Program-made: the position numbers and the translations under genes
The notes under the pieces: model-generated
The model's database searches: none
Told to the model about the DNA's origin: nothing
The model's input: the letters and a program-made list of their open reading frames with translations, nothing else
Shown: one piece after another, positions 46,680 through 60,210 of the stretch
How the letters are laid out: every line of letters begins with the position of its first letter
How positions within the stretch are numbered: the first letter of the stretch is position 1
Assembly (NCBI RefSeq): GCF_030013205.1
Contig: NZ_CP122648.1
DNA: 64,000 bases
Source: Escherichia coli
Lineage (GTDB): Bacteria; Pseudomonadota; Gammaproteobacteria; Enterobacterales; Enterobacteriaceae
Reading direction: 5' to 3' (one strand)

Positions 46680-46967
46680 ATGACAGCAGAGTACATCAGG
46701 GACTGGCAACAACCGCGCCACGCAGTGGGGCGTGAAGGAACGGGGATCCCTGCTCCTGAAGCGGTGGAAGGTGTCGCAACGTCACAGGCCGACATTATCG
46801 ACCGTTTTAATGCGCTGGAAACCCGCCATCAGCAGGACAGCCAGAAAATCACTTTACTGACCACAGAGCTGACAGCACTGAAGGAAAAACTGCGCACGCA
46901 GGACGGCGATCCGCAGAACCGGTTCACCGCAACGGGCGCAGCCTCCGATCAACTGGCTGACTTCTGA
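46680..46967 (+). CDS. Hypothetical phage protein, 95 aa
   Basis: Tightly packed ORF. Confidence 0.45.
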   Translation: MTAEYIRDWQQPRHAVGREGTGIPAPEAVEGVATSQADIIDRFNALETRHQQDSQKITLLTTELTALKEKLRTQDGDPQNRFTATGAASDQLADF

Positions 46968-46990
46968 TAAGACAAAGGAGCAAATTTTTT

Positions 46991-47254
46991 ATGAATCTGG
47001 TGATGTCAGATATTACCCGCAACAAGCTGGGTTGCTATATGGCGCAGCAGGCGTCGCTTAACAACATCCCGGTATCTGCACTGGTATCGCGATTTACCGT
47101 GGAACCCTCGGTGTCCGCCATTGCTGCCGCACTGCATGTGCACGGTGTGCAACGCGTGGAAATAATCGAACCCACACAGAATATGGCCATCAGCGACATA
47201 CAGGCGGCGCGCTGTGAGTCATTCACCATCAGCGAAGGTGGACGCAATGAGTAA
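46991..47254 (+). CDS. Short ORF (87 aa) overlapping the gpI start; possibly a 3' remnant of baseplate gene J
   Basis: 8-bp overlap with gpI as expected for a J/I junction; far shorter than P2 J (~300 aa). Confidence 0.35.
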   Translation: MNLVMSDITRNKLGCYMAQQASLNNIPVSALVSRFTVEPSVSAIAAALHVHGVQRVEIIEPTQNMAISDIQAARCESFTISEGGRNE

Positions 47255-47784: not shown

Positions 47785-50442
47785 ATGAGCACGAAATTTA
47801 AAACCGTTATCACTACTGCCGGAGCCGCGAAGCTGGCAGCCGCCACTGTCCCCGGCGGGAAAAAAGTAACTCTGTCTGCAATGGCCGTGGGTGACGGTAA
47901 TGGCAAATTGCCGGTGCCGGATGCCGGTCAGACGAAACTGGTGCATGAGGTCTGGCGTCACGCTCTGAATAAAGTCAGCGTGGATAACAAGAATAAAAAC
48001 TATATCGTGGCTGAACTGGTTGTACCGCCAGAAGTGGGCGGCTTCTGGATGCGTGAGCTGGGTCTGTATGACGATGCCGGAACACTGATTGCGGTCGCTA
48101 ACATGGCGGAAAGCTATAAACCTGAACTCGCTGAAGGCTCCGGGCGCGCGCAGACCTGCCGCATGGTTATTATTGTCAGCAACGTGGCGTCCGTTGAGCT
48201 GAGTATTGATGCCAGCACAGTGATGGCGACGCAGGATTACGTCGATGACAAAATCGCAGAGCATGAGCAGTCCCGCCGCCATCCTGACGCCACGCTGACA
48301 GAAAAAGGTTTTACTCAGTTAAGTAGCGCAACAAACAGCACCAGTGAAGAGCTGGCGGCAACGCCAAAGGCAGTAAAAGCAGCCTATGACAATGCTGAAA
48401 AACGTATGCAGAAAGACCAGAACGGTGACGATATTCCAGATAAGGGCGCTTTTCTGGACAACGTTGGCGTTACCAGCCTGACGTTTATGAAAAACAATGG
48501 CGAAATGCCGCTTGATGCTGACTTGAATACATTTGGTCCCGTTAAGGCTTATCTTGGCATCTGGTCTAAAGCAACATCCACCAACGCAACACTGGAGAAA
48601 AATTTCCCGGAAGATAATGCTGTCGGTGTGCTTGAGGTTTTTGCAGCTGGCAATTTTGCAGGCACGCAACGTTTTATCACGAGAGACGGCAATGTATACA
48701 TGCGTAAACTCGCCAATAAGTGGAATGGCACTGATGGTCCGTGGGGCGTATGGCGTCACACTCAATCAGCTACCCGCCCTTTGAGTACGACTATAGACCT
48801 GAATACGCTTGGAGCCGCTGAGCATCTTGGTTTATGGCGTAACAGTAGCTCGGCTATAGCTTCATATGAACGCAATTATCCAGAGGAAGGCGGCTTTGCT
48901 CAGGGGACGCTTGAGATCCTCGAAGGCGGGAATTATGGAAGAACGCAACGTTATACCACTCGTCGTGGGAATATGTACGTTCGCTGCCTTGCGGCAAGCT
49001 GGGATGCATCAAATCCGCAGTGGGAACCGTGGTTAAGAGTCGGTCATCAGTCAGAGAGCCGTTATTACGAAGGTGATTTGAATGTTCTAACCGACCCCGG
49101 TATTTACAGTGTTACAGGAAAGGCGACAAACGGTCCGATGCTGGACGCTGCTGGGGCGACATTGCTTGGGATACTGGAAGTAATCAGGCGTTTTGATGGT
49201 GTATCTGTCTGGCAGCGTTACACAACCACAGGGAAATCAGAAACCACACAGGGGCGCACTTTTGAGCGCGTCTACGCCGGGAGCACATGGACCGAATGGC
49301 GAGAAGTGTATAACTCCTTTTCGTTGCCCCTGAATATGGGGATCGGTGGCGCAGTGGCAAAACTCACCAGCCTGGACTGGCAGACCTACGATTTTGTGCC
49401 GGGCAGTCTGATAACCGTTCGGCTTGATAACATGACCAATATTCCCGACGGTATGGACTGGGGCGTCATTGATGGCAACCTGATAAACATCGCTGTTGGT
49501 CCGAGTGATGATTCCGGTACGGGGCGCTCAATGCATGTATGGCGCAGCACTGTAAGTAAAGCGAATTACCGCTTTTTTATGGTTCGCATTTCAGGAAATC
49601 CGGGAAGCCGCACGATTACGACAAGACGTGTGCCAATTATCGACGAAGCTCAGACATGGGCGGCGAAACAGACATTCAGCGGTGGTCTTTCTGGCGAACT
49701 ATCCGGCAATGCTGCTACAGCAACAAAGCTGAAAACGGCAAGGACAATTAACGGCGTAAAATTTGACGGCTCGGCAAATATTGAAGCGTTTCCGCCAGGT
49801 GTTCCGCTGCCGTGGCCATCAGATACTGTGCCGTCTGGTTACGCCCTGATGCAGGGACAGACTTTTGATAAATCTGCATACCCGAAACTTGCAGTCGCTT
49901 ATCCGTCAGGCGTGATCCCGGATATGCGTGGCTGGACAATCAAGGGCAAACCCGCCAGTGGTCGGGCCGTATTGTCTCTGGAACAGGACGGCATTAAATC
50001 GCACACCCACAGTGCCAGCGCATCCAGTACGGATTTGGGTACGAAAACCACATCGTCGTTTGATTACGGTACTAAATCAACGAATAACACAGGTGCACAT
50101 ACCCACAATGTATCTGGTACTGCAAATAGTGCTGGCGCACATACTCATACCGTTCCATTAAGGAGACCAAACAGTGGCGGTATGAATTTCGACTGGCTGG
50201 ATGGTGCATCAAGTGGCACGGTGGTGGGGAATGGAACTGTGCCTTCTTCTGGCGCACATACCCACTCAGTATCAGGTACCGCTACAAGTGCTGGGGCACA
50301 TGCACACACTGTTGGTATTGGCGCTCATACGCACTCTGTTGCGATTGGTTCACATGGACACACCATCACCGTTAACGCTGCTGGTAACGCGGAAAACACC
50401 GTTAAAAACATCGCATTTAATTATATTGTGAGGCTTGCATAA
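47785..50442 (+). CDS. Tail fiber protein (P2 gpH-like), 885 aa
   Basis: Conserved N-terminal fiber domain ([20 protein letters not shown]...), internal repeats, C-terminal HxH repeats (GAHTHxVSGTAxSAGAH) ending [11 protein letters not shown]. Confidence 0.9.
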
Positions 50443-51059
50443 TGGCATTCAGAATGAGTGAACAATCACGTACTGTAAAAATTTATAACCTGCTGGCCGG
50501 AACTAATGAGTTTATTGGTGAAGGTGACGCATATATTCCACCTCATACAGGGCTGCCAGCCAATTCTACAGATATCGCCCCACCGGAAATTCCTGCTGGC
50601 TTTGTGGCAGTTTTTAACAGTGAAAATGAATCGTGGAATATTGTTGAAGACCATCGTGGTAAAACGGTCTATGACGTGGCATCGGGGGACGCGTTGTTTA
50701 TTTCTGAACCCGGACCGCTACCAGAGAATGTCACCTGGTTGTCGCCAGCAGGGGAGTATCAGAAGTGGGACGGCGTATCCTGGGTGAAGGATGAGGAAGC
50801 AGAAAAACTGTTTCGGATACGGGAAGCGGAAGAGAAAAAGGCAAGGTTGATCCAGGAAGCAACAGATAACATCGCAATTCTGCAGGATGCAGTTAATCTT
50901 GAAATAGCAACAAACGAGGAAAATTCACAACTGGATTCCTGGAGAAAATACAGAGTATTAGTGAGTAGAATTGACACCAGTACAGCTCCGGATATCGTAT
51001 GGCCAGAGCTGATGAATCAGGGTTATGTGCGGGAGGACGAGCAGATAACTTCAGACTGA
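50442..51059 (+). CDS. Tail fiber assembly chaperone (P2 gpG/Tfa-like), 205 aa
   Basis: TAATG-coupled to the fiber gene; Tfa-like sequence. Confidence 0.8.
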
Positions 51060-51586
51060 AATTTAGTGATGAATGTTGAATCATCTGGAATATCATGCAA
51101 TACCAATGCATGAGCACCTATTGTGACATTGTTTCCTATACGCACTTTGCCACCAAGAATGGTGGCATTACAACCAATGGTCACATTATGTCCTATAACA
51201 ATATCCATATCATTAAAATCACCACGCAGCCCAATAGTTACCCCTGGTTTTATTGAACAATTTTCACCGATTGTTACTTTGTGACCGATAACAACACTGT
51301 TGAGATAAGAAATATCAAAGCCTTTCCCTATATTTACAGTTAAAGGGACTGTTACATTATATTTATCAAGAATGAAACGTTCTATTTTCCCCGCAATCTT
51401 CCGACAGCATCCGCCTTTATCAAAAAGGTATTTGGCTATGCGCCACCAAAATAAATAACGAACTCTTCTATGTTTTATTGCGCGAACAATTGCCTTTCGC
51501 CAGGAGAAAGGACGCTCGCTACCGATTACTTCATAGTGAATACAATCTTTAAGTTCATTAATATTCATATCTCTATTATTCAGCAT
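51023..51586 (-). CDS. Hexapeptide-repeat O-acetyltransferase (WcaB/CysE-like), 187 aa
   Basis: Left-handed beta-helix repeats ([45 protein letters not shown]); AT-rich; 37-bp convergent overlap with the fiber assembly gene. Confidence 0.75.
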
Positions 51587-51756
51587 AAGATAATCATGTG
51601 ACCAATTATTGTAATAATTTTAATGGTATGTTTCTACTGGCTATCCAGCGTGTCTGATGTCCAGTAACAAATCGTTAACACTGGTGCAATCAAATGGTGA
51701 GTGTTAAGACTGGCCACTTATTACCAGGTATGAGGGTATGAGTGGCCAGCATTAAA

Positions 51757-52251
51757 TCAGAACAGCCCTTTAACTGAACTGGCCGCGCTGTTAAGGGATG
51801 ATGTCACTTTATCTTTGAAGCCGGACAGCATATCGCTGAACGATGAGGATTGCAGGCGCTCCCGCAAATCCTCATCACAGCGTTCAAGGGTCAGTGAAAA
51901 TTCTATCTTTTTCGCCTTACCGTAGCGATCAAACTCGGAACGGGTCGTATTCGTTTCGGTCAGGACATACATGCCGTAAATCTGCCCGACGCCATCAATA
52001 AGAGGCCAGGGGCGTCCTGTATACGCCTGCGTGGTCAGCAGCGACAGCGACACTTCGCCACCTGTAATTTCAGGATAAAGCACACCAGAAAGAACGATGC
52101 GATCATCACCTGCACCGATATACTGCCAGCTTGCTGAACGGTTAACGCGTTCATTTTTCACATGCCGCCAGCTTTTGTTTTGCTGTAACTGCTGATGCGG
52201 CAGCGTGCGCAGCTCAAAAACAAACATGCCGTAGATCATCATCATGGCCAT
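51757..52251 (-). CDS. Tail protein U (P2 gpU-like)
   Basis: MMMIYGMFVFELRTLPHQQLQQNKSWRH...VLSGVLYPEITGG...PLIDGVGQIYGMYV matches recalled P2 gpU. Confidence 0.88.
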   Translation of the reverse strand: MAMMMIYGMFVFELRTLPHQQLQQNKSWRHVKNERVNRSASWQYIGAGDDRIVLSGVLYPEITGGEVSLSLLTTQAYTGRPWPLIDGVGQIYGMYVLTETNTTRSEFDRYGKAKKIEFSLTLERCDEDLRERLQSSSFSDMLSGFKDKVTSSLNSAASSVKGLF

Positions 52252-52257
52252 GACTCC

Positions 52258-55074
52258 TCAATCTTTATCGTAAAAACTGCCACGCCCGGCACGGGCGCGC
52301 CGTTCCATTTCTGCCCTGACCATTTCACCGACCAGTTTCGCCAGTTCGCGGGGATTCTGCGTAACAACGTTATGCAGATGAACATGAATTTCACCACCAA
52401 ATCCGGAGGCAACAGGCTCCCGGTTACGGGAAGTTACAGGAACTGATGCCACTGGAGATCGTATGGCCTCCGCCACCGGGCGGGAGCTGGCCGCAACAAC
52501 AGGGACCAGCGCCGGAGGCAGCGGAGCCGGGACCACGGGTGTGATATTAATTGCGGGGGCAGGCTTACTGACCTGCGCAATCTTCCGCTCCTGCCACTCT
52601 CCACGAACAGCAAGTGCGCGGGGCAGGTTCTTAAAGACAATATCGCCGGGGCCAATGCGTTTTTTCGTCTCATCAACCAGCTTACCTGTGTTATCAGCAA
52701 TTTTGCTGAGTCTGCGTAGCGTCCCGGTATTGCTGTCTGTGAGCGGTTTGTTGTCTTTGGGTTTATTACCTCCGGTGCCATTGCCATTTTCCACAGGCTT
52801 CGGCGGATTGATTTTCGCCAGGTCACCCTGAAGCAAGGCAACCTTGTCCTGAAGAATGGCCGCACGCTGTGCGTCTTCGATTTTCTTGCGCGCCCTTTCC
52901 GCTTCATCCGGAAGGACGCCAAGTTTTTCAAGTATCCACGCCAGCGTATCCAGTAGCATTTTTGCAGGTGTCAGAACAAGCTGTAACGCACCGCCAAGAA
53001 CGTTACCGAATATCTCGCCAGCACTGGTACATTTATCCAGCGTTTCCTTGCTGGACTCCATCGGTGACAGCAGCGATTTAAACCAGTTAAACACCTGGCT
53101 GATCCCGCTTCCGATTGTGTCAAAAACAGGACCAAACCGTTCAAAGGTTTCGCGCAACGGGGTCAGCCTTTCCATAATCCCGCTGAACACCCCGGCAAAA
53201 AATGCCCTGATGGGATCCCAGTATTTCCAGATAAGAACGGCAGCTCCGGCAAGCGCAGCCACGATAAGACCAACCGGACTGAACAACGCCCCGATGGCGC
53301 CTCCCAGTAAAGAAACGGAACCCGTCACCATTCCCCACAGCGCAGGCAACACCCTGACGACATTCATTGACCGGGTAAGAATGTCAAAACCAAGACGCAG
53401 GGTGGCCAGCTTCCCGTAAAGCACCCCAATAACCAGCGACAACGAGCCAATCGTTGCAGTCATTGCCAGCAACGCACCGCCTGCTATCAGTAGCTGGCGC
53501 GTCAGTACCGGATGGGCCTGCGCCAGCGAGGTGATTTTTTCAAGCACCCGCGTGAGCCACTGCGTGACAGAACGCAGCGGACCGTCAACCAGATCACTGA
53601 TGCGAATACGAAGACCTTCCCATGCGCTGTCGAGATTTTTCAGGTCCCCATCAAGATTATCGGCCATTACTTTTGCGACGCGATCGGCCTCTCCCCTTGC
53701 CCCCTGCAATTCTCTGGTCAGTTTTTGCAGCTCTCCTGAACCAGCCGCCGCAACAAGCGTCTGCAAACCAACGAACGCCTCTTCTCCGGCGATGTCCTTG
53801 AAGAAGGAAACCTGGTCCACCTGTCCGTATTTTTGTGTCGCCTTATAGAGATCAAGCAGCACATCCTCCATCGGGCGCATTTTGCCTCTGGCGTCAGCAA
53901 CTGACACCCCCAGCTCTTTCAGTGCATCAGCCGCAGCTTTTGGCGGTGATGCAAGGCGGGACAGACTTGCGCGCATGGCCGTACCAGCATCGCTTCCGCG
54001 AAGACCATTATTGGCAAGCATCCCGGCCATGGCCGCCGCTTCTTCAAGACTGATACCAAGTTTTGCGGCAACCGGACCGGTATACTTCATGGTTTCGCCC
54101 AGCGCGCGTAAATCAGTATTGGTCCGGGTGAATGCTGCTGTCAGCGTATCGCCAACACGGTCCATTTGATCGGCTGTCAGGTTGAACTGTGTGAGGATAT
54201 TGGAGCCTATATCAGCCGTCTCGCCGAGTTCGACGCCACCTGCCAGCGCCATATTAAGAACACCGGGCAATGCGGCCTGAATGGCCTGCGGAGTAAAACC
54301 AGCCATTGCCAGAAAGCTCTGCCCACTGGCGGCATCACTCGCAGTAAACTGTGTTTCAGAGCCAAGTTTTAACGCCTGCTCACGCAGCGCCTTAAACTGC
54401 GGGCTGTTTTTGTCGATTCGCGTCAGTGCCTGAACGCGGGACATCTCTTTGCCGAACCCGATCGCAGGCTGCAAAAAACGCCCGGCAGCATAGCCGCCCG
54501 CCGTTGCCGCACCAATTGCCAGCGCACCACCTGTTTTCAGTTTTCCCGCTGTTTCCTGCGCGCGCGAATACCGCTCACGCGCCCGTGTTACACGCGCAAG
54601 CGCCTGCCGTTCGCGTTCAAGCTGGTTGTTGTACTGTTCGGTGCGTCTGATGGCCTGCTGGATGGTGTTATCGCTGCCTGTCAGGGAAATGCCGTGGCGT
54701 TTCAGCTCTCCGCCAAGCTCCCGCATTTTCTGAATTTCCCGTGTGCGCGATTCATTCAGGCGTTCAAGCCGGGTGCTTAACTGCTGCATCAGCTTTTGTT
54801 GTTTTTCGCTGAGCACTGTACCCGTGCGTTGTAACTGATTAAGGGCGTTAAGCTGGCGTCGTGCTTTCAATATGCCAGCATCCGCTTTACTGACAGCGTC
54901 ACGGGCGCGCTCAAATGAACGCGCCTGACGCTCGAGATTTTTGATCGCCCCCTGCGTTCGCTGGATGGAGTCACCAAACTGCCCCATCAGGCGGCGGGCG
55001 TTTTCGGCAGGCCGGGTCAGCCTGTCAACGGCGCTGAAAGCGACCCGGATGTCAAGAGTCTTCATTGTCTGCAT
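52258..55074 (-). CDS. Tail tape measure protein (P2 gpT-like)
   Basis: Long coiled-coil/TM-rich protein between E' and U; start uncertain (ORF extends to 55101). Confidence 0.85.
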   Translation of the reverse strand: MQTMKTLDIRVAFSAVDRLTRPAENARRLMGQFGDSIQRTQGAIKNLERQARSFERARDAVSKADAGILKARRQLNALNQLQRTGTVLSEKQQKLMQQLSTRLERLNESRTREIQKMRELGGELKRHGISLTGSDNTIQQAIRRTEQYNNQLERERQALARVTRARERYSRAQETAGKLKTGGALAIGAATAGGYAAGRFLQPAIGFGKEMSRVQALTRIDKNSPQFKALREQALKLGSETQFTASDAASGQSFLAMAGFTPQAIQAALPGVLNMALAGGVELGETADIGSNILTQFNLTADQMDRVGDTLTAAFTRTNTDLRALGETMKYTGPVAAKLGISLEEAAAMAGMLANNGLRGSDAGTAMRASLSRLASPPKAAADALKELGVSVADARGKMRPMEDVLLDLYKATQKYGQVDQVSFFKDIAGEEAFVGLQTLVAAAGSGELQKLTRELQGARGEADRVAKVMADNLDGDLKNLDSAWEGLRIRISDLVDGPLRSVTQWLTRVLEKITSLAQAHPVLTRQLLIAGGALLAMTATIGSLSLVIGVLYGKLATLRLGFDILTRSMNVVRVLPALWGMVTGSVSLLGGAIGALFSPVGLIVAALAGAAVLIWKYWDPIRAFFAGVFSGIMERLTPLRETFERFGPVFDTIGSGISQVFNWFKSLLSPMESSKETLDKCTSAGEIFGNVLGGALQLVLTPAKMLLDTLAWILEKLGVLPDEAERARKKIEDAQRAAILQDKVALLQGDLAKINPPKPVENGNGTGGNKPKDNKPLTDSNTGTLRRLSKIADNTGKLVDETKKRIGPGDIVFKNLPRALAVRGEWQERKIAQVSKPAPAINITPVVPAPLPPALVPVVAASSRPVAEAIRSPVASVPVTSRNREPVASGFGGEIHVHLHNVVTQNPRELAKLVGEMVRAEMERRARAGRGSFYDKD

Positions 55075-55288
55075 TCCCGCTGCGAAGTGCCGCCCGCTCA
55101 CGCCAGCTAACCACTTCGCCGGGCGTCATCATGAAGATTTCGGCGGGCGACCAGTTAAAAATGGCGGCGATATCTGCCACCAGATCTTCGATGTGCTCAA
55201 AGCACACCAGGGTGATTACGCTGCCGTCTCCTGCACGCTCTTCGCGCCAGAGTCTGGCTCGCTCATAAAATTTACAGCCACAGCGCAC
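55052..55288 (-). CDS. E' frameshift extension of tail assembly chaperone (P2 E+E'-like)
   Basis: Overlapping -1 frame ORF continuing past the E stop; joined via a slippery heptamer. Confidence 0.6.
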   Translation of the reverse strand: MRCGCKFYERARLWREERAGDGSVITLVCFEHIEDLVADIAAIFNWSPAEIFMMTPGEVVSWRERAALRSGNADNEDS

Positions 55289-55590
55289 AACTGAATAAAA
55301 TCGCGTGACGACATTTTTTTAATCATCACTTCATCCAGTCGTGGCGAGGTCACGCGAGGCAACAGCGTGAACATGGTATCCGCTTTCAGATTCAGCACAT
55401 CAGACAGCGACAGACCACGCAGGGATCCAGCCTGTTCAATAGCCCCGGTGATCTCCACATACGTGATTTTTTCGCCACCACGCTCAATTGGTCGGGTCAG
55501 TTTTACGCCACGTTCGACAGCCATATCCTCACCTGCCGTCACATCATCCGCCACGGTGTTATTCCGGGTTTCAGTATCGATGTCTTTCAT
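55216..55590 (-). CDS. Tail assembly chaperone E (P2 gpE-like)
   Basis: Small acidic ORF between the tail tube and tape measure genes; start uncertain. Confidence 0.75.
   Translation of the reverse strand: MKDIDTETRNNTVADDVTAGEDMAVERGVKLTRPIERGGEKITYVEITGAIEQAGSLRGLSLSDVLNLKADTMFTLLPRVTSPRLDEVMIKKMSSRDFIQLCAVAVNFMSEPDSGAKSVQETAA
55267..55273 (-). promoter_or_regulatory. Candidate -1 programmed frameshift slippery site A_AAT_TTT (E to E')
   Basis: Heptamer of the form X_XXY_YYZ in the E frame, located where the E' frame opens. Confidence 0.45.
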
Positions 55591-55645
55591 CAGTTGTCTC
55601 CTTTTCAGTCAGAGGCGACGCACTGCGCCGCCTGCATATTACTTA

Positions 55646-56158
55646 TCAGCCAAGCCCGAGCGCGGAACGGATGCGATCGGGCACAATGTCCTTGCCGTCC
55701 TTCCGGTAAATGAAGTTCAGCAGGTCAATCTCCCACAACGGGCGATCGTTAACACTCAGCTTGTAGTAGGTGTTTTTAATGGCGTAAGTGTGTGATGTGG
55801 CTTCGCCCTGTTTGGCTTCCCCCATATCAATTTCCGTCACACGTCCGCGCATTTCGACTTCATACAGGTCGCTTTCTGCATCGGTGTAGTATTCACCCGC
55901 AAAACGCAGCAGCGTGCCGTCAATCGTGCCGCCATACTTAAGGAACAGCTCACGAACTGCGCCCCCCATGACAAAGCTCGCATCAAGCGCGGAGTCGTCC
56001 AGACCGAGATCAATACTTACCGCACCCATCATGCCACCACCCCGGTAGCTGTCGGTTTTGCGCGTCAGCTTAGGCAGAGTGACGGACGTCACCTTACCCA
56101 CTTCGTTTTCACCATCCACAAACAGCGTAAAAAAGCGAAGATGTTTTGGTACAGCCAT
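55646..56158 (-). CDS. Tail tube protein (P2 gpFII-like), 170 aa
   Basis: ...VTLPKLTRK...YRGGGM...DLGLDD... matches recalled P2 FII; TGATG-coupled to the sheath gene. Confidence 0.9.
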   Translation of the reverse strand: MAVPKHLRFFTLFVDGENEVGKVTSVTLPKLTRKTDSYRGGGMMGAVSIDLGLDDSALDASFVMGGAVRELFLKYGGTIDGTLLRFAGEYYTDAESDLYEVEMRGRVTEIDMGEAKQGEATSHTYAIKNTYYKLSVNDRPLWEIDLLNFIYRKDGKDIVPDRIRSALGLG

Positions 56159-57345
56159 CAGGCACCTCCCAGCACCGCAAATGCGGGACCAAAGAATTCA
56201 TCAGTAAACGACTGATAAAGCTCCATGTCTTCCAACGGGGGAACAGGCGTATATTTGTAGCGAATACGCACGCGCCCCTGACGTAAATCCGTGGTGCTGT
56301 TATCCACCACGTCATACCAGCACTCCGCGCCAATCAGTTTCCCGGCAGTCACCAGTGAATCCAGTTTTGCCCTGATGGCACTGATAACATCCTTCACGTT
56401 CGCAGGCGTCAGTGGACTGTCGATGGTTTCAAACTGCGCTTCCGCAATTGAATCAGCCAGCACCTGTGCGGTTCGGGTATACACCTCAAAGATGTAGGCG
56501 TTCGTTTCCGGTGTGCGGTTGCCCCAGAAGCGGAACCCGTTGCGACGAATAATGGTCGTGATTTCTTTGTTGTTGAGGCTGTTGGCATCGCTGTCTTCGG
56601 CCTGCAACGACCAGAACACATGCCTCGACATCCCCAGCACATTTTTAACAGGAACGTTGGACAGTGATTTGTGCCAGCCCTGCTCATGGTCAATGTACGC
56701 ACGAAGGCCGCACGCATAGGCAGGCGCGGGGAACGTTTCGTTTTTGCCACTTTTCGGGTTGTAGGCGATGAAGTCCGGCCATAAGAGCATCACCTCACGT
56801 TCGTTGAATTTCTGGCGGTAGGTAATCGCATCAGCCATCGTGTCACAGCCATGACATGAGGCATACACAAACGCGCGCAGTTTACCCGCAATCACGCACA
56901 GGGATTTTGTCACCGCCTCCGTGTCCAGCTCCGGCGCGGCCAGAATACGCGGACGGTATCCGATGCTTTCATCCTGCTCTGCAACAAGCAGCGCATACAT
57001 CCCCGTATAGCTGCCGTCAGATTCAGAACCACCGATAACCAGTTGATCCTGCGTCTTTCCGTCTTCTTCTTTGTGTTCAGCCACGCGAACGACGATCACC
57101 TTTGTGCTCACCTGGTCTGCGATAGCCTTAAGCGCACGATAAAGCGTCCCCGTTGTCCCGCATTTTCCCAGCACGTCATTGACGCGGGTCAGCAGTGTGG
57201 GCTTGTTCAGCGGGAACAGCTTCGCGTCCGCATCATCCGCCGTTGCCACGATACCGATAACACTGGAATCAACATCATTAATCGCTGTTACCAGGTCGGT
57301 ATTTTCCGTAACACGGGCACCATGAAAACGAGTTTCACTCATAGC
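56158..57345 (-). CDS. Contractile tail sheath protein (P2 gpFI-like), 395 aa
   Basis: Start taken at MSETRFHGARV; size and sequence typical of a myovirus sheath. Confidence 0.9.
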   Translation of the reverse strand, partial: AMSETRFHGARVTENTDLVTAINDVDSSVIGIVATADDADAKLFPLNKPTLLTRVNDVLGKCGTTGTLYRALKAIADQVSTKVIVVRVAEHKEEDGKTQDQLVIGGSESDGSYTGMYALLVAEQDESIGYRPRILAAPELDTEAVTKSLCVIAGKLRAFVYASCHGCDTMADAITYRQKFNEREVMLLWPDFIAYNPKSGKNETFPAPAYACGLRAYIDHEQGWHKSLSNVPVKNVLGMSRHVFWSLQAEDSDANSLNNKEITTIIRRNGFRFWGNRTPETNAYIFEVYTRTAQVLADSIAEAQFETIDSPLTPANVKDVISAIRAKLDSLVTAGKLIGAECWYDVVDNSTTDLRQGRVRIRYKYTPVPPLEDMELYQSFTDEFFGPAFAVLGGA

Positions 57346-57499: not shown

Positions 57500-58609
57500 A
57501 TGACCGATACCACCATGCAATTGCTCAGTCAGGGCACAGACCCCGTGAAAATGCCGGATTTTGATATTCTCGCGGAGGGTAAAACGCTGTCAGGCGTGGC
57601 AGAGCGCCTGATGAGCCTGTCACTGACCGACAACCGGGGATTTGAGGCGGACCAGCTCACCATCACGCTGGATGATGCGGATGGTCAGTTGCAGCTACCG
57701 CCACGGGGCGCGCGCCTGACGGTTCTCATTGGCTGGAAAGGAGAACCGCTGACAGAAAAAGGCACTTACATTGTTGATGAAATCGCTCACGAAGGACCGC
57801 CGGACAGGCTGACTGTTTCAGCCAGAAGCGCAGATTTTCGGGATGAATTTAACGTTAAACGTGAGGTGTCCTGGCATGATGTGACCGTTGAGCGTGTGGT
57901 ATCCGCCATCGCTCATCGGTACGGCCTGAAACCGCAAATCAGCGAAATGCTGATGGATATCGAAATCGACCACGCCGACCAGACCGAAGAAAGCGACATG
58001 TCCTTTCTTACGCGCATGGCGGAAATGCTGGGCGCAATCACCACGGTAAAAAGCGGTAATCTGTTATTCATTATGCCAGGCGGTGGCGTGAACGCACAGG
58101 GCCAGCCGTTGCCCTCGTTCGCCATTACACGCAGCAGCGGCGATCGCCATCAGTTCCGTATTGCTGACCGCGAGGCGTATACGGGGGTACGCGCCTACTG
58201 GCTTGATCTTAATTACGGGAAAAAGAAAAAAGTCAGCGTGAAACGCCGTAAACCGCCAAAACCCAAAAAGGAGAAAAGCAGCAGCCGTGAAGGTGATTAT
58301 ATGGAAGGCGCGGAAGGCAATGTGTTTGTGTTACGCAAGACTTATCAGAACGAGCAGGCAGCAAGACGCGCAGCGGCGGCAAAGTGGCAGCAGCTACAAC
58401 GCGGAGCCGCATCATTCTCCATCACGCTGGCGCGTGGACGTGCAGAACTCTACCCTGAAATGCATGGCACGGTGACAGGCTTTAAAAGTGACATCGACAA
58501 TCAGGACTGGATTATTGCAAAAGCCGAGCACACCATTGATAACAGCGGCTTTACCACGCAGCTTGAGCTTGAAGCAAAAATCCCAGAATGGATAGCAGAA
58601 ACAGAGTAA
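57500..58609 (+). CDS. Tail protein D (P2 gpD-like), 369 aa
   Basis: Start at MTDTTMQLL with RBS AGGGAGGG; gpD-like sequence; ORF track extends upstream to 57368. Confidence 0.85.
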   Translation: MTDTTMQLLSQGTDPVKMPDFDILAEGKTLSGVAERLMSLSLTDNRGFEADQLTITLDDADGQLQLPPRGARLTVLIGWKGEPLTEKGTYIVDEIAHEGPPDRLTVSARSADFRDEFNVKREVSWHDVTVERVVSAIAHRYGLKPQISEMLMDIEIDHADQTEESDMSFLTRMAEMLGAITTVKSGNLLFIMPGGGVNAQGQPLPSFAITRSSGDRHQFRIADREAYTGVRAYWLDLNYGKKKKVSVKRRKPPKPKKEKSSSREGDYMEGAEGNVFVLRKTYQNEQAARRAAAAKWQQLQRGAASFSITLARGRAELYPEMHGTVTGFKSDIDNQDWIIAKAEHTIDNSGFTTQLELEAKIPEWIAETE

Positions 58610-59618: not shown

Positions 59619-59879
59619 ATGTTCCGTTGTCCGCTTTGTGGCGCATCTGCCCGTATCCGCACCAGTCGTCCGGAAAATGATTCAAACACCGTGCGGCAAA
59701 AGTATTACCAGTGCAACAACCTGGAATGCGGCGTATGCTTCTCAACACTGGAAGCTTTCCATAAATTCACATCGAAACACGCCTCCGGCATCCACTCTTC
59801 AGAAGGTATCCCGTGGCATGAGCTGCCAGCTTCACACAGGGGAAACAATCAGATGAGCTTGCCTTTACCTCAGAATTAA
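59619..59879 (+). CDS. ogr: Ogr/Delta-like zinc-finger late gene activator, 86 aa
   Basis: MFRCPLCGASARIRTSR...QKYYQCNNLECG: CxxC...CxxC arrangement as in P2 Ogr. Confidence 0.8.
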   Translation: MFRCPLCGASARIRTSRPENDSNTVRQKYYQCNNLECGVCFSTLEAFHKFTSKHASGIHSSEGIPWHELPASHRGNNQMSLPLPQN

Positions 59880-59939: not shown

Positions 59940-60152
59940 ATGGTCGGAGGGAATACCCGAAGGCCGGATGTGGAAAGGCCCCGGAAAACATTTTTGTTTA
60001 ACCGAGGCCCTGACCATACAACCTTCGCAAGTCGTAGGTTAGCGCCTCTCCAACAAAGGAGCAAGCGCTATGTCGCAAAAATCGCTTATGGCCATCACGT
60101 TCTGCGTGACGGTAATCCTCATCATCTGGATGCTGCACGGTTCGCTGTGTGA
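59940..60152 (+). CDS. Mok-like reading frame overlapping the hok-like toxin gene
   Basis: 70-codon ORF in another frame, starting upstream of and ending within the toxin ORF, as in hok/mok loci. Confidence 0.4.
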   Translation: MVGGNTRRPDVERPRKTFLFNRGPDHTTFASRRLAPLQQRSKRYVAKIAYGHHVLRDGNPHHLDAARFAV

Positions 60153-60210
60153 AATACGGATGAGCTTCTGGGGAGCGGAGTTTGCGGCGTTCTTACAGTG
60201 TAAGCAGTAA
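60070..60210 (+). CDS. Hok/Gef-family type I toxin, 46 aa (MSQKSLMAITFCVTVILIIWMLHGSLCEIRMSFWGAEFAAFLQCKQ)
   Basis: N-terminal TM helix then SLCEIR and AAF motifs characteristic of Hok-family toxins; RBS AAGGAG 8 nt upstream; below the ORF-track length cutoff. Confidence 0.75.
   Translation: MSQKSLMAITFCVTVILIIWMLHGSLCEIRMSFWGAEFAAFLQCKQ

Follow-up and report, generated by a model that had tools for sequence, protein, structure and literature searches.

A phage-borne acetyltransferase-like gene of Escherichia coli belongs to a mobile tail-fibre cassette and has lost the canonical catalytic histidine

The 64,000-nucleotide stretch of Escherichia coli DNA analysed here (the window), 100% identical to the chromosome of ETEC4079, contains a P2-like prophage, located between dmsA and serS, in which tfa, the tail fibre assembly gene, is followed immediately on its 3' side by a small gene on the opposite strand. 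The locus raises the question of what a protein resembling hexapeptide acetyltransferases does at the end of a fibre operon. We use acT as a working name for this acetyltransferase-like gene antisense to tfa, and for the phage-borne family with a CysE/WcaB-like fold of which it is a member. In kind, acT is ordinary: a prophage accessory gene ('moron') from the left-handed beta-helix (LbH) superfamily. What is unusual is its fixed membership of a fibre cassette, its commonness without a known function and under a misleading name, and the replacement of the catalytic histidine throughout its clade.

The longest open reading frame (ORF) at this position, 51023–51586 on the minus strand, has the coordinates described in a first-pass annotation of the sequence and comprises 187 codons. 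Translation more likely begins at M7 (51568) and yields a product of 181 aa: an 84%-identical relative has no start codon at codon 1, M7 is where all homologues start, and RefSeq annotates the same start.

51023–51568, minus strand: probable coding sequence (CDS) of acT, 181 aa from M7, based on the ORF, the RefSeq CDS in an identical record, Pfam and NCBIfam matches, AlphaFold2 and Foldseek, and the ratio of nonsynonymous to synonymous substitution rates (dN/dS).
51569–51586, minus strand: MLNNRD, the six extra codons of the longest acT ORF, probably untranslated; codon 1 is Leu, not ATG, in a lambdoid prophage (L019).

The reported AT-richness of acT was confirmed, its GC content being 37.2% in surroundings of about 50% (tfa 46%, H 51%, U 50.5%, prophage 50%). 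Between copies with a dS of 0.12–0.31, dN/dS is 0.057–0.096, and the gene is still intact in several heavily decayed prophages. These comparisons indicate that acT is a real accessory gene under selection. IS1 insertions split acT in several strains (H34, H35 and H53), and the gene is therefore dispensable in these backgrounds.

The protein has the left-handed beta-helix of the CysE/WcaB type that was proposed for it. It matches the Pfam family Hexapep (PF00132) with 47.5 bits, above the gathering score of 27. The AlphaFold2 monomer model, with a mean predicted local distance difference test (pLDDT) score of 90 and a predicted template modelling score (pTM) of 0.83, consists of four N-terminal helices followed by the LbH. 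A Foldseek search with this model gave 88 PDB matches at E≤1e-3 with CysE at the top, the best of them being serine acetyltransferases with template modelling (TM) scores of 0.67–0.74. Among curated NCBIfam models the best matches are EpsC, CysE, WcaB and NeuD, all far below their cut-offs: 80 bits against 150 for EpsC, 70.1 against 210.65 (TIGR01172) and 44.1 against 397 (PRK11132) for CysE, and 62.3 against 196 and 60.1 against 194.65 for the two WcaB equivalog models. Comparison with hidden Markov models (HMMs) of the WcaB, NeuD and CysE types thus places acT in a WcaB/CysE-like family, below every curated cut-off.

Other searches gave little indication of function. The matching PHROG family, PHROG 2154, is annotated 'unknown function'. 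Pfam gave Hexapep-type matches only, and Acyl_transf_3, the membrane Oac/OafA type, was not found in acT. A search of the viral structures in BFVD returned no useful match. In PADLOC-DB no family matched at E≤0.01, so that a known or candidate defence protein was not found, and a known anti-phage defence system was rejected as an explanation. A literature search found no functional study of the family. The paper on the P1-like phage JL22 states that it is not known why the gene is present (PMC9603915), and a study of Citrobacter rodentium prophages lists a family member solely as a 'fitness' cargo gene (PMC6456863).

The RefSeq product name for acT is 'serine acetyltransferase', and its source is CysE, the nearest solved fold. 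We aligned acT with E. coli K-12 sequences, which served as references for both CysE and WcaB, using HMMER and MAFFT. Residues D143, D157, H158, E166, R192 and H193 of CysE correspond to T79, S93, Y94, H102, M127 and D128 of acT. In CysE, His158 and Asp143 form the catalytic dyad, and the roles of the substrate-pocket residues have been described, with equivalents listed for NgSAT (PMC8786284). No Pfam match to SATase_N was found in acT. The protein has 181–187 aa compared with 273 aa in CysE, lacks the first part of the SATase domain, including a counterpart of the Asp92 region, and ends in SSSRT without the CysE C-terminal tail that finishes in Ile. The idea that acT is a genuine serine O-acetyltransferase, an auxiliary metabolic gene that raises cysteine synthesis, can draw on the RefSeq product names and on CysE being the best solved-structure match; however, the low scores on the CysE models, the replacement of all six aligned residues, the lack of a long N-terminal domain and the deviating C-terminus make it hardly credible. 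We rejected it on the curated scores and the replaced active-site residues. A CysE paralogue with intact serine-binding residues, the outcome that the first-pass annotation had named as contrary to its own interpretation, is thus not what the locus holds. The active-site comparison contradicts the RefSeq name and indicates that acT is not a serine acetyltransferase of the cysteine pathway.

A catalytic histidine is reported to be common to all crystallised LbH enzymes (PMC3046976); acT has Tyr94 in its place. Among 73 homologues, this position is His in 63 and Tyr in exactly the eight closest (53–97% identity). We also surveyed 80 IMG/VR loci, 39 of them close copies and 39 assessable at 34–52% identity. 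All loci of at least 86% identity that cover the site have Thr and Tyr at the positions of the acidic partner and the histidine, and all those at 34–52% identity have Asp or Glu together with His. When the 147 best representatives from 1.84 billion proteins were inspected, 137 had His and four had Tyr, two of the latter within the acT clade and two distant. Every clade member at 53–99% identity combines Thr, Lys or Val at position 79 with Tyr94, which is invariant. Alleles linked to fibre genes are of both types, His in JL22, O157 and phiNP, and Tyr in the acT of the window and in yong2. His102 of acT, at the position of the CysE active-site Glu166, is limited to a subclade of at least 66% identity (66–99%).

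Of the earlier designation 'hexapeptide O-acetyltransferase', the hexapeptide fold stands, whereas the O-acetyltransferase activity is an assumption, because the acT clade has Tyr and Thr in place of the canonical catalytic His and the acidic partner. The dN/dS values and the invariance of Tyr94 argue that the protein is functional. Since both canonical residues are replaced, acT may use a different chemistry, for instance with an acceptor for which a general base is unnecessary, or with a base at another position such as His102. Alternatively, the clade could act through binding only, without catalysis. Some LbH N-acyltransferases function without a catalytic base.

Comparison with other records revealed that acT is the last element of a 1.85-kb cassette made up of fibre tip, Tfa, acT and a promoter-like site.

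47785–50442, plus strand: tail fibre gene H, 885 aa (Pfam Phage_tail_fib, Phage_fiber_2 and Collar).
49810–50442, plus strand: 3' end of H, encoding about the last 210 aa with collar and tip, which forms the left side of the cassette; homology starts at 49810 (L004) or 49791 (L019).
50442–51059, plus strand: tfa, the G-like tail fibre assembly gene (Pfam Caudo_TAP, 1.6e-39).
51608–51636, minus strand: sigma-70-like promoter candidate TAGAAA-17-TACAAT, found by consensus scan, which moves with acT.

Positions 49810–51656 match a P1-like 97-kb plasmid (L004) at 94.8%, and 49791–51637 match a lambdoid prophage with the gene order J-lom-stf-tfa-acT (L019) at 87.5%. A longer stretch, 48299–51847, matches a 47-kb phage-plasmid at 93.6%, and this plasmid retains a gpU fragment. 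Because of these homology limits, we define the cassette as the last approximately 210 aa of the fibre, Tfa, acT and some 50–70 bp upstream of acT. It appears from these matches that the cassette recombines among P2-like prophages, lambdoid prophages and the 47-kb and P1-like phage-plasmids, i.e. at least four phage backbones. The link to tfa is allele-specific: all tfa alleles with at least 90% full-length identity are accompanied by acT, and the common tfaQ/tfaR alleles match over the first 400–507 nt only and are without acT. The homology of the cassette stops at 51637 or 51656, just upstream of the promoter-like site. This site, a candidate identified from its consensus match only, is kept in the copies of the P2-like prophage, the 47-kb plasmid, the P1-like plasmid and phage 613R2, and the -10 element reads TATAAT in the P1-like copy.

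The association with fibre modules extends to distant homologues. Those of Hafnia phage yong2, Citrobacter phiNP and P1-like JL22, which are 37–53% identical to acT, are convergent to tfa, and the JL22 homologue is located within the cin-invertible segment. Nearly all of the 39 close copies in IMG/VR have a convergent tfa that overlaps or lies within about 12 bp. At 34–52% identity, a convergent Tfa-like ORF is found within 92 bp in 21 of the 39 loci and a fibre gene instead in three more, and two further loci are near a fibre or invertase module. Lambdoid copies (L019 8235–8327; L050–L057; L106 5640–5732) carry, 90–190 bp upstream of acT and divergent from it, the last 31–35 codons of a Cin/Pin-type invertase. 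The JL22 location and these invertase remnants suggest that the family tends to occupy the place of the alternative tfa' in an invertible fibre segment. In the Mu G/gin, P1 C/cin and e14 P/pin systems, acT would correspond to tfa' in both position and orientation. Those systems have an invertase and an alternative fibre, whereas the window contains neither, and consequently nothing in it can invert.

The allele of the window is present in 183 of 5,426 complete E. coli genomes, at 214 places. A lambdoid subtype was found in at least 59 more genomes, including that of enterotoxigenic E. coli (ETEC) H10407, and a His-type allele with 38% identity in 530, including O157:H7, O111:H8 and O104:H4. 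Taken together (183, at least 59 and 530 of 5,426), about one complete E. coli genome in seven carries a member of the family. The ETEC4079 chromosome (NZ_CP122643.1) has three places that match acT. Distant cellular relatives (P0035, P0079 and P0027) are located in polysaccharide clusters together with glycosyltransferase, Wzx/Wzy, sugar-nucleotide, NeuB or epimerase genes.

What, then, could acT do? We tentatively favour the interpretation, plausible though held with some doubt, that acT is a cytoplasmic modifier of an envelope glycan precursor, expressed in the lysogen and with consequences for phage adsorption. It is preferred because of the relatives in polysaccharide clusters, the antisense promoter-like site, the foreign composition, the retention in decayed prophages and the fibre linkage. 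Transcription would start at a sigma-70-like promoter belonging to the gene itself and run against the late fibre operon, which is why we infer that acT is expressed in the lysogen and not together with the virion genes. The product, soluble and presumably trimeric, would have as its cytoplasmic target a nucleotide-sugar or lipid-linked precursor from which the cell makes an envelope glycan, i.e. the lipopolysaccharide (LPS) core, O-antigen, enterobacterial common antigen (ECA) or colanic acid. The changed surface could then alter phage adsorption, as lysogenic conversion or receptor masking. The polysaccharide-cluster relatives, together with the tight link to receptor-binding fibre modules, fit surface modification or receptor masking.

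Several observations weigh against this interpretation. The catalytic His and its acidic partner are Tyr and Thr in acT. The fibre tip of the cassette is lambda Stf-like (68–70% identical to lambda Stf over the last 210 aa), and receptors of the lambda Stf class include OmpC besides LPS; OmpC is not modifiable by a cytoplasmic acetyltransferase. The 3' end of the fibre operon is a generally permissive site for morons. About four of the IMG/VR loci at 34–52% identity adjoin an integrase, as in phage ESSI2_ev015, and a 49%-identical His-type homologue in the Enterobacteriaceae bacterium BIT-l23 (L014 6001–7697), the first of three tandem LbH genes, is chromosomal with no phage genes nearby. The carriers belong to many serotypes, which speaks against an O-antigen-specific target, and approximately 15% of the carrier genomes have two or three acT copies, which speaks against strict self-exclusion.

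A version with self-exclusion would hold that Stf/Tfa cassettes carry a built-in partner, each acT allele altering the glycan used by the co-inherited fibre or, in the Tyr clade, blocking it without catalysis. We regard this as unlikely. If it were true, fibre tip, chaperone and receptor modifier would move and diversify as a unit, like a toxin-immunity pair, and the Tyr94/Thr79 clade would represent either a new LbH chemistry or a pseudoenzyme.

That the Tyr clade has lost transferase activity and persists as a binder, e.g. one that sequesters a lipid-linked glycan intermediate or a partner protein and so still alters the surface or phage sensitivity, is in our view rather unlikely. The loss of His and acidic partner in the whole clade agrees with it, given that the other phage and cellular relatives examined keep the acidic residue and His, or at least His, and so does the strong purifying selection that persists on acT. 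The C-terminal coils with conserved LbH motifs are nevertheless well kept, the invariant Tyr94 suggests a functional active-site residue, His102 occupies the CysE Glu166 position in the 66–99% identity subclade, and some LbH N-acyltransferases work without a catalytic base. Distinctly unlikely is an acetyltransferase acting on a small molecule (a xenobiotic, antibiotic or metabolite) and unrelated to the fibre, with the 3' end of tfa merely a permissive moron site. Weak matches to the Vat, CatB, LacA and Maa models and the occurrence of some homologues away from fibres speak for it; however, the matches reach only 25–32 bits against cut-offs of 300–475, and both the fold and the top-scoring matches are CysE/EpsC/WcaB-like. 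The fibre linkage moreover recurs in at least five phage backbones, down to 34–38% identity, and the cellular relatives are found in polysaccharide clusters.

The adjacency to tfa could also be explained if acT modified the fibre or Tfa of the phage itself, or if its main role were to keep leaky H-G expression silent in lysogens by antisense transcription. The obligatory character of this adjacency, and the convergent arrangement with no recognisable terminator between the genes, are consistent with either. Co-expression with the fibre is unlikely, though, since acT, with a promoter-like site of its own, is oriented against the late operon; an antisense RNA would leave the purifying selection at the protein level unexplained; and the family is also found away from fibres. 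We therefore consider these explanations very unlikely.

The envelope-glycan interpretation resembles what is known of NeuO from the E. coli K1 prophage CUS-3. In CUS-3, neuO adjoins the tailspike gene, and acT is likewise a prophage cargo gene adjoining a receptor-binding tail gene. Both encode soluble LbH proteins that are not needed for phage growth. NeuO is an LbH polysialate O-acetyltransferase that modifies a surface polysaccharide (PMC3046976). NeuO is from another branch of the LbH superfamily than acT, on which the LacA and Maa models score only about 31 bits. NeuO retains the catalytic His and Trp, whereas acT has Tyr at the His position. The phase-variable heptanucleotide repeats of the NeuO type are also absent. 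Tandem Repeats Finder (TRF) detected no array in 51023–51700, and phase variation like that of NeuO was rejected. WcaB and WcaF (colanic acid) and the EpsC-type polysaccharide O-acetyltransferases are similar to acT in build, having 162–190 aa and, as in acT, a short helical N-terminus followed by the LbH. The EpsC-type and WcaB models are the best curated HMM matches, yet at 60–80 bits against cut-offs of 150–196. In multiple alignments WcaB is 27–30% identical to acT, and its His74 aligns with Tyr94. WcaB is encoded in the wca cluster, for which that of K-12 was used in the comparison, whereas acT is part of a phage cassette and not of a biosynthetic cluster. In Klebsiella, prophage acetyltransferases are reported to be associated with capsule type, an association given without tests (PMC13123978).

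If acT does modify a surface glycan, E. coli would harbour widespread hidden variation in surface chemistry and phage susceptibility that O and K typing miss. Fibre swaps, whether engineered or natural, would also carry the gene along automatically, which is relevant to phage therapy and to P1- and P2-based delivery vectors. The change from His to Tyr makes the clade a natural experiment on LbH catalysis, within a family that is common in E. coli and yet uncharacterised.

The genomic slot of acT was described in the first-pass annotation as equivalent to the Z/fun position of P2. The gene order is I-H-G on the plus strand, acT on the minus strand, U-T-E-FII-FI on the minus strand and D on the plus strand.

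51657–51751, no strand: backbone-specific spacer between the cassette and gpU, delimited by homology limits.
51704–51755, minus strand: hairpin directly 3' of the gpU stop and mostly inside the spacer (18-nt arms, inverted repeat I2).
51757–52251, minus strand: gpU, last gene of the inverted FI-FII-E-T-U block (Pfam Phage_P2_GpU, 5.5e-39), with the same layout in strain E5.

Like P2 fun(Z), acT follows directly on the 3' side of G, runs against the late operon and is located where content varies among relatives. The fun(Z) gene is AT-rich. In these respects, i.e. position, orientation, foreign composition and variable content, the equivalence stands; it fails at the far flank, which is the FI promoter in P2 and the 3' end of gpU here. 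The far neighbour is gpU and not FI because this P2-like lineage has FI-FII-E-T-U on the opposite strand, and flanked by U the slot is only half Z/fun-like. The block, at 51757–57342 on the strand opposite to H-G and D, is a lineage trait; approximately 1,430 E. coli genomes share this gpU. A local scramble of the tail genes was rejected, the intact prophage of E5 and about 1,400 genomes having the inverted FI-U layout. The P2 gene itself is about 1.6 kb long in the P2 record, compared with an LbH protein of 181 aa for acT. The fun locus of P2 is a second defence-enriched site, a hotspot of defence and cargo genes (PMC9519451). Acetyltransferases are unmentioned in the P2 hotspot papers.

That acT is cargo, as the first-pass annotation proposed, agrees with the foreign composition and with the finding that only 120 of the approximately 1,430 genomes with this gpU have the window allele beside it. 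The slot is hypervariable; only from 51752 onwards is the backbone again homologous to that of sister prophages. Unlike the fun(Z) slot of P2, the slot holds an invertible fibre segment with an invertase in a sister prophage of the lineage. This prophage, of strain E94 (L107 3785–5970), has tfa, tfa', part of an alternative fibre' and a recombinase (invertase) between G and U, which is an invertible fibre segment of the Mu G/P1 C type in a P2-like phage. In the same G-U slot, a P2-like remnant of O157:H7 TW14359 (L108 5277–5849) has tfa and a His-type acT allele, 38% identical to that of the window and 97% identical to JL22 SacF.

For the inverted F block, the hairpin next to gpU is a possible terminator. 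Its arms are 83% complementary around a 16-nt loop, a clear T-run is absent, and it is kept beside the gpU fragment in the 47-kb plasmid.

At their 3' ends acT and tfa overlap by 37 bp in convergent orientation, as first described, both ORFs covering 51023–51059.

51023–51059, no strand: convergent 3'-end overlap of acT and tfa, 37 bp, from the coordinates; relatives instead have gaps of 10–43 bp.
51012–51059, plus strand: C-terminal extension of Tfa by 15 codons and the stop, due to a 2-bp deletion at the ancestral stop in the alignment with L019.

In L019, Tfa ends in VWPEL and a 10-nt spacer follows up to the acT stop codon; other Tfa proteins stop 2–6 residues past the WP motif. The alignment at the tfa stop (GAGCTGTGA vs GAGC--TGATG) reveals a 2-bp deletion in the window lineage, as a result of which Tfa reads 15 codons into the antisense strand of acT. 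We rejected the overlap as a designed feature, since it is secondary to this deletion and relatives have gaps. No terminator-like site was found between tfa and acT, and the convergent transcripts would therefore be expected to overlap.

Two adjacent inverted-repeat pairs, 51167–51219 with 51593–51630 (23 nt at 83% and 14 nt at 93%), join the acT 5' region and the CDS. The two pairings cannot form one nested hairpin because the arms pair in crossing order, and as a long-range structure they were rejected, being judged chance in AT-rich DNA. Inside tfa, at 50785–50983 on the plus strand, Rfam matches IS009 (RF02111) with 80.8 bits and an E of 4.6e-18; this is below the threshold of 117 bits and probably reflects homology to K-12 prophage tfa sequence and not an RNA gene. 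It is the sole such match, and an RNA element in the region was rejected.

The prophage of the window is defective twice over (46680–47113 and 57756–58609). What is left of the replication gene A, the scaffold gene O and the capsid gene N is fused, V-W-J is missing and gpD has lost its N-terminus, whereas the intact relative in strain E5 has A, O, N, V-W-J and a full gpD. In another assembly (L104 805–1644), an identical acT has as its neighbour a called gene in which P2 capsid and Caudo_TAP domains are fused, and this is another deletion variant of the same prophage. The right end of the prophage, beside serS, carries an ogr/delta zinc-finger gene (59619–59879) and a hok/gef toxin gene (60070–60210).

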